Source: a virus. Taken from it: 64,000 nucleotides of DNA. Below the pieces are notes generated by a model. That model saw only the letters and a program-made list of their open reading frames with translations, was not told the DNA's origin and did no database searches. Positions 26,970 through 27,980 of this stretch are shown here, piece after piece. The stretch is taken from IMG/VR virus record IMGVR_UViG_3300036859_000309, positions 4,814-68,813 of that record. One strand, given 5' to 3'. The translations under genes were made by a program, and so were the position numbers. Position 1 is the first letter of the stretch. The number at the start of each line of letters is the position of its first letter.

Positions 26970-26994
26970 AAAAAAGCCGCCCGAAGGCGGCTTT
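26970..26994 (-). terminator. Intrinsic terminator of pilin gene
   Basis: AAAAAAGCCGCC-CGAA-GGCGGC on + strand. Confidence 0.85.
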
Positions 26995-27011
26995 GCAAGT
27001 CGGGTGCGAGA

Positions 27012-27494
27012 TCAGATGGGCGCGCCGGTCGCACCGCAGGTCTTGGGAAGAATCGACGCGTCGACGTTCGATTCGCAGGTCCACTTCGAACCATTGACCG
27101 AGTAGACGAGGTGGTAGGTCATGGTCTTGCTGACCAACTTGGGGTTCACGCCAGTTGCTTTGAACGTGGCCATGACAGTGCAGCCTCCGGTAGCGGCCGC
27201 CGTACCAGCACTGGTCACGCTCAGCACGTACTTGCCGGTGATGGCGGTCGCAATACCGATATCGCCAACTGCGGCGGCAGCATTCGCCGGGCACGTGTTG
27301 TCTTGCGGGAAGCTCAACTCGATATTCTTCTTGACGCCGTCGGCGAGCGTTGCGGCTTCGGTCAACTGGGCCTTGGCGGTGTAGTCCTGATAGGCGGGCA
27401 GCGCGACAGCGGCCAGGATGCCGATGATGGCCACCACGATCATCAACTCGATGAGGGTGAAGCCGCGTTGAGCGGAGCGAATAGCACGGTTCAT
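27012..27494 (-). CDS. pilA: Type IVa major pilin
   Basis: [38 protein letters not shown] prepilin motif; C-terminal WTC...PKTC disulfide loop; AGGAG RBS. Confidence 0.93.
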
Positions 27495-27541
27495 ATGGAA
27501 ACTCCTAGTAGTGATGCCGGGAACTCCGGACGCCTGACATG

Positions 27542-27557
27542 TGCAGCATGCATGCCA
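27542..27557 (-). promoter_or_regulatory. Sigma-54 (-24/-12) promoter of pilin gene
   Basis: Minus strand TGGCATGCATGCTGCA: GG-N10-GC. Confidence 0.8.
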
Positions 27558-27601
27558 AGACAAGCTTGACCGTTGCCCCCCAAAAAATGAGAACTACTGC
27601 A

Positions 27602-27647
27602 TGACGGCGCGTGACACGATCCGGCTCTGACTGACAAAATGCGTCAC
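27602..27647. promoter_or_regulatory. Putative activator (PilR-type) binding sites
   Basis: Repeated TGAC half-sites and imperfect palindrome TGACAAAATGCGTCA upstream of the sigma-54 promoter. Confidence 0.5.
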
Positions 27648-27980
27648 ATGAGAGCACATTTTGTTTCTGTTGTCGCCATGCTGCTTGCCGGCTGCACTCC
27701 CGGCGCGACCGAGCATGCAGGGACGCCTTCAGATTTCGGCGCCGCCATTGTGGCCTCGGCACTTGCGTCAGCAATGAAGGAATGCAGTTTGGCAGGTTAT
27801 GAAGACCTTGCCACCTGCATAGAAGCGCCCATGGCAATCGCTGGGGGCGCCCGCAGAGCAGCCCTGGTAGCACAGGATATGAGCCTCACCTACGCTGCCG
27901 CATGCGGCGAATCGCTCGGCGCCCAGCGGTGCGACGACATGCTCATGAGCGCGTATGTCAGCGCTCAGGCTCTTCGCTGA
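27648..27980 (+). CDS. Putative Cys-rich lipoprotein
   Basis: Lipobox LAGC after a hydrophobic leader. Confidence 0.55.
   Translation: MRAHFVSVVAMLLAGCTPGATEHAGTPSDFGAAIVASALASAMKECSLAGYEDLATCIEAPMAIAGGARRAALVAQDMSLTYAAACGESLGAQRCDDMLMSAYVSAQALR

Follow-up and report, generated by a model that had tools for sequence, protein, structure and literature searches.

A gene for the major subunit of a type IVa pilus was found in a temperate siphophage, IMG/VR virus record IMGVR_UViG_3300036859_000309, which comprises 68,813 bp (68.8 kb), originates from a soil metagenome and is approximately 98% complete according to CheckV. The analysis covered bases 4814-68813 of this record, a stretch of 64,000 nucleotides which is referred to here as the window, in which most of the phage genome lies and to which all positions refer unless otherwise stated. 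The host genus is likely to be Variovorax. We are confident that the pilin gene and the signals around it form a functional, phage-borne cassette. A fuller explanation, in which a phage pilin wired to host regulation would re-surface the pili of the lysogen and thereby exclude other phages, is ranked no higher than its weakest inferred step and is, in our judgement, evenly poised between right and wrong. The features which make up the pilin transcription unit are listed below.

27012..27494, minus strand: type IVa major prepilin gene (ATG at 27494, stop at 27012; 160 aa, comprising an 11-aa leader and a mature protein of 149 aa)
27502..27506, minus strand: Shine-Dalgarno sequence AGGAG (CTCCT on the plus strand), 7 nt before the ATG
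27542..27557, minus strand: predicted sigma-54 (-24/-12) promoter TGGCATGCATGCTGCA, TGGCAT-N5-CTGCA with GG-N10-GC spacing
27567..27646, no strand assigned: cluster of TGAC/GTCA half-sites, including the palindrome TGACAAAATGCGTCA; putative sites for an enhancer-binding protein
26965..26994, minus strand: intrinsic terminator of the pilin gene, with its stem at 26994-26973 and a T run after it
26914..26945, plus strand: intrinsic terminator of the neighbouring 850-aa gene (stem 26914-26937), convergent with the pilin terminator

The phage pilin

The product of the gene carries a class III signal peptide, the 11-aa leader ending in Gly-1 and being followed by Phe+1 and Glu+5, and it matches the Pfam families Pilin (PF00114, E 7.8e-17) and N_methyl (PF07963, E 8.6e-11), in agreement with the initial annotation, which had claimed an intact pilA-like gene with a prepilin cleavage site. 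It also matches two PHROG families, phrog_27437 (unknown function, E 3.7e-23) and phrog_3433 ('pilin', in the moron category, E 1.9e-09); pilin-like genes of phages have thus been catalogued already, in both cases as entries without a studied function. Of the four cysteines in the precursor (C68, C105, C140, and C153) the last three are invariant across 45 aligned homologues. The pair C140 and C153, which corresponds to the D-loop cysteines previously pointed out, is predicted from sequence to be bonded across the C-terminal loop and aligns with the cysteines of the Pseudomonas aeruginosa K122-4 pilin.

Among PDB sequences this K122-4 pilin (1QVE) is also the closest solved relative (E 7.9e-27), with approximately 50% identity and the same fold. 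The AlphaFold2 (AF2) model of the phage pilin has a mean predicted local distance difference test score (pLDDT) of 88.4, with a helix at residues 14-65 and strands at residues 90-155. A Foldseek search of the PDB with this model gave 1qve as the best match (E 3e-12, template modelling (TM) score 0.86 by target length, root mean square deviation 1.4 A), and the top 15 matches were all major type IV pilins, those of Neisseria, Dichelobacter, and PAK following 1qve. Based on the sequence match and the superposition on K122-4, the protein is assigned as a type IVa major pilin and not as a pseudopilin or minor pilin.

The base composition of this region departs from that of its surroundings, the GC content being 0.602 in 27001-28000 compared with 0.643 and 0.654 in the flanks, and GC at third codon positions (GC3) being 0.76 in the pilin gene compared with 0.83-0.88 in the neighbouring genes. 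No match to deposited phage genomes was obtained either with megablast of 24000-31000 or with tblastn of the pilin against 50,697 genomes; within that collection, no cultured relative carries this pilin.

A self-contained, host-dependent transcription unit

The pilin gene is encoded on the strand opposite to that of the late genes, and its predicted sigma-54 promoter, half-sites, ribosome binding site and terminator support its being an autonomous unit, or moron. The ribosome binding site, terminator, GG-N10-GC promoter and TGAC repeats had all been reported in the initial annotation and are all present, and its description of the gene as a self-contained moron is borne out by the promoter and terminator of its own and by its location in a cargo slot close to the attachment site (see below).

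The sigma-54 pattern is not significant by count, since 0.56 copies would be expected in 64 kb and two are present, a number also attained in 11 of 100 shuffles; the call therefore rests on position and conservation. Of the 24 pilin loci from Variovorax genomes, 20 have an element of this kind 98-119 nt upstream of the Phe+1 codon, and it was also found in four of five close viral loci and in two of two further genome loci, the copy in the window being at 96 nt. For the pilin strand no sigma-70-like promoter was found. Upstream, the 144-nt intergenic region (27495-27638) contains six TGAC motifs against a mean of 1.0, six or more being reached in only 0.14% of 144-nt stretches, and the palindrome TGACAAAATGCGTCA, which begins at 27632, is one of only three TGAC-N5-8-GTCA palindromes in the 64 kb. 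The available excerpts of PMC6058289 describe activation of pilA by PilR together with sigma-54 and the sensing of PilA by PilS. The predicted core promoter is well supported as one of the host type, it is plausible that it uses the same activator as the host pilin gene, and control of the phage pilin by host sigma-54 and a host activator is considered probable.

The remainder of the machinery would have to be provided by the host. Matches to the T2SSE ATPase, Peptidase_A24 and Sigma54_activat families were absent from the whole 68.8-kb record, no gene for RpoN was found in it, and the pilin itself accounts for the only N_methyl match, which accords with the earlier remark that no other pilus genes are present. 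RpoN is encoded in all five of the Variovorax genomes tested. Because the phage is without RpoN, a sigma-54 activator, a prepilin peptidase, and a pilus ATPase, the gene can work only through the host, whose RpoN, activator, PilD, and pilus machine would all be indispensable to the cassette.

Integration site and cargo slot

The following features place the pilin within the phage genome.

First 4.9 kb of the record: large terminase, protease, and major capsid genes
22815..24364, plus strand: lysis genes, comprising a glycoside hydrolase 19 (GH19) endolysin (22815-23453) and Rz/Rz1-like genes (23619-24364), the latter assigned from position, overlapping-gene arrangement and phrog_3580
24337..26889, plus strand: gene for an 850-aa Pro-rich protein with PAPEPP-type repeats, located between the lysis genes and the pilin; second cargo gene
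27958..28356, minus strand: possible 132-aa open reading frame (ORF) upstream of the pilin, regulator-like by eye, of uncertain status
28721..29356, plus strand: ATP-dependent DNA ligase of 211 aa, adenylation domain only; last gene before attP
29450..29531, plus strand: attP core region, consisting of the last 15 nt of tRNA-Ser(gct) and 67 nt resembling the DNA downstream of this tRNA in Variovorax
29625..30815, plus strand: tyrosine integrase (Arm-DNA-bind_3, Phage_int_M, Phage_integrase)

After the capsid end come the portal, tape measure and tail proteins, and 3' of the lysis genes the order is 850-aa gene, pilin, a lipoprotein, the possible small ORF, ligase domain and tyrosine integrase. 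A RecE-like exonuclease and a methyltransferase are encoded in an early operon which runs leftward; it is followed by the repressor region and by a rightward operon which comprises a helicase gene and, near the right end, an HNH endonuclease gene. This gene order fits an excised or virion genome and not an integrated prophage.

The attP core is 93% identical over 82 nt to an empty tRNA-Ser site in Variovorax genome G136 (genomes and loci are denoted here by handles beginning with G and L, respectively), where no homologue of any window protein was found in the surrounding 20 kb. In genome G133 the same tRNA is directly followed by an integrase 94% identical to that of the phage, and a second copy of the core adjoins a relative of the ligase-side arm of the phage. 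As the core maps both to the empty site of G136 and to the integrated relative of G133, the record has an intact attP. The link to tRNA-Ser comes from this genome comparison, Rfam (26800-29800) and ARAGORN having found nothing at attP.

The element in G133 is some 10 kb in length (L206, that is G133:C1:3283000-3302999, at about 553-10632) and has four early-gene homologues, with core repeats at both ends; by its sequence, it is a prophage remnant or a satellite-like element on the same integration module. A sequence resembling the T-arm and 3' end of a tRNA, GTTCGAATCC, is present at 29359-29390, right after the ligase stop and approximately 60 nt to the left of the tRNA-Ser core, and may be the fossil of an earlier att site; the stretch 29365-29467 matches two other places in G133 at 77-78%.

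The start of the pilin gene is 1.96 kb from the att core and on its phage side, with the lipoprotein gene, the possible ORF and the ligase in between, so that the initial annotation was right to place it between the lysis genes (22815-24364) and att (29450-29531). In a lysogen the order would be tRNA-Ser and integrase at one end and, at the other, late genes, lysis genes, 850-aa gene, pilin, lipoprotein and ligase, followed by attR.

The content of this slot differs between relatives. An integrated relative in genome G058, which ends at tRNA-Asn, has lysis genes 81-87%, an 850-aa gene 84% and a ligase 65% identical to those of the phage, the ligase homologue being at the same place (L219, 13501-14127), and between the 850-aa gene and the ligase it carries a gene for a SRAP peptidase, with no pilin nearby. 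A ligase remnant is found at L068 (10692-10820). The pilin is, by this comparison, cargo in a slot of variable content among related phages. The 850-aa protein has no Pfam match, one weak PHROG match and, in the ESM Atlas, matches only to 'hypothetical protein' clusters; its family is large and multi-copy in Variovorax, with matches in 72 of 148 genomes, several per genome and some of them in tandem. The possible ORF at 27958-28356 is without a Pfam or PHROG match.

Pilins and a partner lipoprotein in related phages

Related loci were taken from IMG/VR contigs which share genes with the window phage. Their pilins are 36-88% identical to the window pilin, have the same type of promoter, and are located in the same slot or beside the repressor. 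At L068 the slot itself recurs, with endolysin, Rz/Rz1-like gene, a divergent regulator, a 36% identical pilin with TGGCCC-N5-TTGCA and terminator, and the ligase remnant, whilst at L013 a 56% identical pilin adjoins a 70% identical homologue of the possible ORF at 27958-28356. According to Pfam, the pilin of L003 (88%) has an S24 repressor immediately downstream and an HTH_3 gene upstream, and that of L004 (85%) is situated beside an HTH_3 repressor. Genes in such a position are typically expressed in the lysogen. The search for pilins at the same locus in related phages, which the initial annotation had proposed as a check, therefore gave both the same slot (L068) and positions next to the repressor. 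In L005, L006, L017, and L028, pilins of 44-57% identity are found amid homologues of the early genes of the window phage, and in L012, L014, and L065 the pilin comes after the tail genes. A natural lysogen is provided by Variovorax sp. GT1P44 (G001), in which L092 is a prophage by gene content (ORFs like single-stranded DNA-binding protein (SSB) and DnaB) with pilin and lipoprotein in tandem; the same genome has a second pilin with a canonical chromosomal promoter, and the two pilins share 37 of 53 N-terminal and 30 of 101 remaining residues.

Divergent from the window pilin is a gene for a small lipoprotein, homologues of which accompany pilins elsewhere.

27639..27980, plus strand: small lipoprotein with lipobox LLAGC, a DFGA motif and four conserved Cys
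27611-27640: sigma-70-like promoter of the lipoprotein gene
L003, 5380-5688: lipoprotein homologue
L004, approximately 8807-9169: lipoprotein homologue
L005, approximately 1229-1585: lipoprotein homologue
L006, 8809-9147: lipoprotein homologue
L037, 513-821: lipoprotein homologue
L092, 10559-10861: lipoprotein homologue

These homologues, 28-44% identical to the lipoprotein of the window, adjoin a pilin in six other loci, making seven with the window, and they do so in three arrangements (divergent, with a helix-turn-helix (HTH) gene between, and tandem) and next to pilins of different clades. With a hidden Markov model (HMM) built from three members, no other ORF was matched in any fetched locus, native pilus loci included. 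The family is rare, a profile search of 1.84 billion representatives having returned 52 small proteins at E<=0.001, 26 of them at E<=1e-10, and none with a name or genomic context; the lipoprotein has no Pfam or PHROG match, and a word-index search matched only the protein itself. Its structure is modelled as a confident small helical bundle (pLDDT >89 for residues 30-113), for which Foldseek gave no match at E<=0.001 in the PDB or BFVD. The linkage suggests either a conserved 'pilin slot' or a two-part module.

Origin and selection of the pilin allele

The named close homologues of the pilin are pilins of Variovorax with 78-85% identity. Matches at E<=1e-12 were found in 137 of 148 Variovorax genomes, but an identity of at least 70% is reached in only three (G124, 83%; G035, 81%; G075, 71%), G147 having 61% and the rest 58% or less. 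In G124 and G035 the pilin is at its native locus, in the order PP2C-FHA-cyclase-phosphodiesterase-pilin-PilY1-PilW, whereas those of G075 and G147 lie amid unrelated chromosomal genes. The two native pilins are similar to that of the phage in sequence (81-83% identity) and in the type and distance of the promoter; they differ in their pilus-locus context, in the layout of their half-sites and, in the native loci examined, in being without the lipoprotein.

A tree was built from 48 mature pilins, of which viral contigs contributed 23 and genomes 25, drawn from 117 loci (L003-L082 and L163-L199), rows lacking a full ORF of 110-200 residues with the cleavage motif having been dropped along with L196-L199, which were duplicates. 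Viral and genome labels interleave: the tree requires 13 label changes, and well-supported branches force at least 8 of them, with the proviso that some rows labelled 'genome' may come from prophages and some labelled 'viral' from flanking host DNA. In this tree the window pilin forms a group with those of L003 and L004 (support 94/94), next to the native pilin of G124. One Variovorax genome has three pilin-like matches in tandem within 3.4 kb (L187, G090:C1:3927-7361), one of which clusters with viral-contig pilins in the tree.

The ratio dN/dS is 0.067 between the window pilin and that of L003 and 0.088 with that of L004, at a dS of 1.0-1.3, and 0.10 with the native pilin of G124. Such low ratios at this dS indicate that the phage copies have been kept as working proteins over a long divergence. 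The phage pilin agrees in all of its first 27 mature residues with the pilins of G133 and G136, which bear attB, and of G058, and 34-35 of residues 1-53 are shared, in contrast to 18-26 of the 96 residues in the remaining, globular part. It follows from this split that the part seen by PilD, PilS, and the fibre core is conserved, whilst the exposed part is different.

Tests of the assembly

Two soil-metagenome runs contain this DNA; the first (X1) may be the source sample, assembled with another assembler, and the second (X2) comes from another study. In X1, one Logan contig covers 21794-27441 with one difference at a depth of 10.5, and thus joins tail and lysis genes and the 850-aa gene to most of the pilin, and another covers 27417-30163 with no differences at a depth of 10.3, and joins the 5' end of the pilin and its promoter to the lipoprotein, ligase, attP and a portion of the integrase. 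In X2, short pieces of identical sequence represent both sides. Many pilins in the sample have the conserved N-terminal coding stretch in common, and for this reason the depth there rises to 165, from approximately 11. For the assembly to be chimeric, two half-pilins, each linked to phage genes, would have to be equally abundant in two studies. Among the outcomes which, according to the initial annotation, would overturn it are two that concern the origin of the segment. The contigs of the other assembler, which link each half of the gene to phage genes, speak against the first, that the segment is host DNA joined by misassembly; the repeated occurrence of pilins in related phages, at no fewer than two loci, speaks against the second, a one-off aberrant excision. 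An excision error at the present att likewise fits poorly as a source of the gene: attP is intact, the gene lies to its phage side, and the native loci with the closest pilins share only the pilin with the phage. When 70 window proteins were compared by tblastn with the native loci L196-L199 (within 10 kb), the pilin was the only match.

Relation to known systems

The concept that a prophage replaces a pilus subunit has already been published, as have prophage homologues of PilA, and the present case is thus less new than the initial annotation assumed. The available excerpts of the report on P-FimU, which is encoded by F10-like prophages of P. aeruginosa, describe a protein that is incorporated into the pilus and blocks phages which bind at the pilus tip (Sztanko et al., Cell Rep 2026, PMC12952977). 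In both cases the phage is a temperate siphophage, and one of its genes codes for a protein homologous to a structural component of the pilus; P-FimU is made in the lysogen and used by the host machine, and the purpose proposed for both is exclusion via a receptor component which works but is no longer recognised. However, P-FimU as described in those excerpts is a minor tip pilin, 28% identical to host FimU and encoded within the tail cluster, whereas the window pilin is a major shaft subunit, encoded as a sigma-54 unit of its own in the cargo slot which separates lysis genes and att, and is known here from sequence alone.

The same excerpts report PilA homologues (P-PilA) in prophages of Xylella fastidiosa and in four phage groups, from bioinformatic analysis only (PMC12952977). 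These are major pilin homologues with approximately 50% identity to host PilA, and are of the same kind as the window pilin, although they belong to the Xanthomonadales rather than the Comamonadaceae, and the parts of the text available contain nothing on promoter wiring, slot, selection or a lipoprotein partner. The haloarchaeal provirus SNJ2 likewise encodes type IV pilins, PilA1 and PilA2, which according to the available portions of the report are assembled by host machinery into surface filaments (Xiang et al., Cell Rep 2025, PMC12426801); these pilins are archaeal and unrelated, and the outcome described there is a receptor for another virus, biofilm and motility, and not exclusion. Terms for a phage- or prophage-encoded pilin or PilA were not met in the papers listed for this topic. 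What is added here is the sigma-54 wiring, the mapped slot, recurrence among related phages, purifying selection, exchange with the native locus and the partner lipoprotein, as read from the comparisons above.

Proposed function and alternative explanations

Many phages use pili as receptors, and few bacterial surface proteins vary as much as the major pilin. In the mechanism which we favour, the gene would be silent in the lysogen unless host RpoN and the host pilin activator, of the PilR type, fire, and synthesis of the phage pilin would then accompany that of the host pilin without being subject to the lytic control of the phage. The prepilin would be cleaved by PilD and polymerised by the host machine, either alone or mixed with host PilA, as is suggested by the identity of the first 27 mature residues to those of resident Variovorax pilins. 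Since the globular domain is unlike that of the likely hosts, the pilus shaft would show a new surface, amounting to a serotype conversion of pili which stay functional, and pilus-binding phages, perhaps with the phage itself and its relatives among them, would adsorb less well. The case for exclusion draws on the example of P-FimU, the placement of many of the pilins beside the repressor and the large diversity of alleles; that exclusion by re-surfacing is the function under selection is a proposition to which we would give an even chance.

A number of observations weigh against this account. The initial annotation had inferred that the phage pilin is expressed exactly when the host pilin is made, a timing which the present comparison leaves as a prediction: the -24/-12 element is of the host type, but the upstream half-sites do not follow the chromosomal layout; in chromosomal Variovorax pilin promoters TGACAAATTTGTCAC (TGAC-N6-GTCA) is located approximately 108 nt and TGTGTCAC approximately 69 nt before the -24 element, whereas the phage has TGAC-N7-GTCA at about -75 to -90, that is, the same half-sites with another spacing and distance. 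No RNA run is listed as containing 25500-29640, and 25 nt within the pilin gene (27417-27441) are spanned by none of the listed Logan contigs. The contrast between a 'foreign' and a host pilin is drawn against stand-in genomes, because the record comes from a metagenome, and in at least two of the 148 genomes the native pilin is 81-83% identical, so that in such a host the effect of the phage pilin would be small. Phages may also still adsorb to a fibre of mixed composition: a single copy of P-FimU at the tip may suffice, but a shaft of thousands of subunits is a more demanding target. The account also presupposes that this phage or its competitors use the pilus as a receptor; the tail protein at 17288-20449 has only 27-33% identity to tail and gene transfer agent (GTA)-like host-specificity proteins of cultured phages (alphaproteobacterial and others), which permits no inference about the receptor.

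To our knowledge, phage-driven replacement has so far been demonstrated experimentally only for a minor tip pilin. If the shaft is indeed rebuilt with the phage allele, the principle of replacement would extend to the main subunit, and competition between phages together with the shuttling of alleles would offer a simple explanation for the hypervariability of pilins. The locus would also provide a tractable, non-pathogenic soil system, with predicted dependence on RpoN and PilR and a conserved partner lipoprotein. A wider scheme can be put forward tentatively, as a possibility which we consider doubtful, in which temperate phages of Variovorax and related bacteria keep a 'pilin slot' marked by the lipoprotein, into which complete major-pilin alleles wired to sigma-54 and PilR would be swapped, converting the serotype of the shaft against pilus-binding phages; cassettes would shuttle to and from native pilA, phages would be users of pilin diversity as well as a main engine of it, and the lipoprotein would be the second part of the module.

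The alternative which survives best, though it seems rather unlikely, is lysogenic conversion for the benefit of the host, which would gain new or more pili for adhesion, biofilm, twitching or DNA uptake, or a receptor for a cooperating virus, exclusion of phages then not being the function under selection. The SNJ2 pilins provide a precedent, since the available portions of that report describe them as the dominant surface filaments, with effects on biofilm and motility and a role as receptor of a second virus (PMC12426801), and a full-length pilin which looks competent for assembly and is under purifying selection would suit such a role. However, as most Variovorax already have a sigma-54-driven pilin, judging from the matches in 137 of the 148 genomes and the promoter in 20 of the 24 loci, a second allele would add surface variety and not a new organelle, and the 36-88% range of allele identity is more readily explained by an arms race than by an adhesive function that is fixed.

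It is also conceivable, albeit improbable, that the pilin acts as a brake, with extra pilin in the inner membrane being sensed by PilS and PilR activity going down to the detriment of total piliation or host pilA expression, or with a foreign subunit poisoning assembly, and that exclusion would come from fewer pili. Direct contact of PilS with PilA for autoregulation is described in the available excerpts of PMC6058289, the first 27 mature residues which are identical to those of host pilins would suit such sensing, and inhibition of assembly by truncated phage PilA-like proteins is considered in the excerpts available from Sztanko et al. (PMC12952977). Feedback would nevertheless lower both genes alike, as they have the same type of promoter, and an N-terminal fragment would suffice for a brake, whereas this pilin is of full length, with conserved cysteines, a confident fold and purifying selection over the whole mature protein. 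Re-surfacing of working pili is preferred to a reduction in their number. Lastly, that the gene is a passenger or artefact, either host DNA from faulty excision near att or an assembler join at the conserved 5' region of pilin genes, is very improbable, for although it lies approximately 2 kb from attP, has its nearest non-viral relatives at the native pilus locus and coincides with an unbridged break of the assembly graph in the conserved N-terminal coding stretch, it is on the phage side of an intact attP, three genes or ORFs from the core, its half-gene contigs are phage-linked at equal depth and recur in the run of a second study, pilins occur in related phages at other loci with dS >1 and dN/dS <0.1, and the native loci examined match the phage only at the pilin.

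Other features of the phage genome

A tRNA-Arg(tct) is encoded at 47988-48064 (plus strand) within the leftward early operon, on the strand opposite to that of its neighbours, and is probably phage-borne. Two ORFs of the plus strand are unusual fusions: the 452-aa product of 2171-3529 combines collagen-like or tail-fibre-like repeats with the C-terminal region of a portal, and the 990-aa product of 51248-54220 combines a helicase with a C-terminus like that of a DNA methyltransferase.

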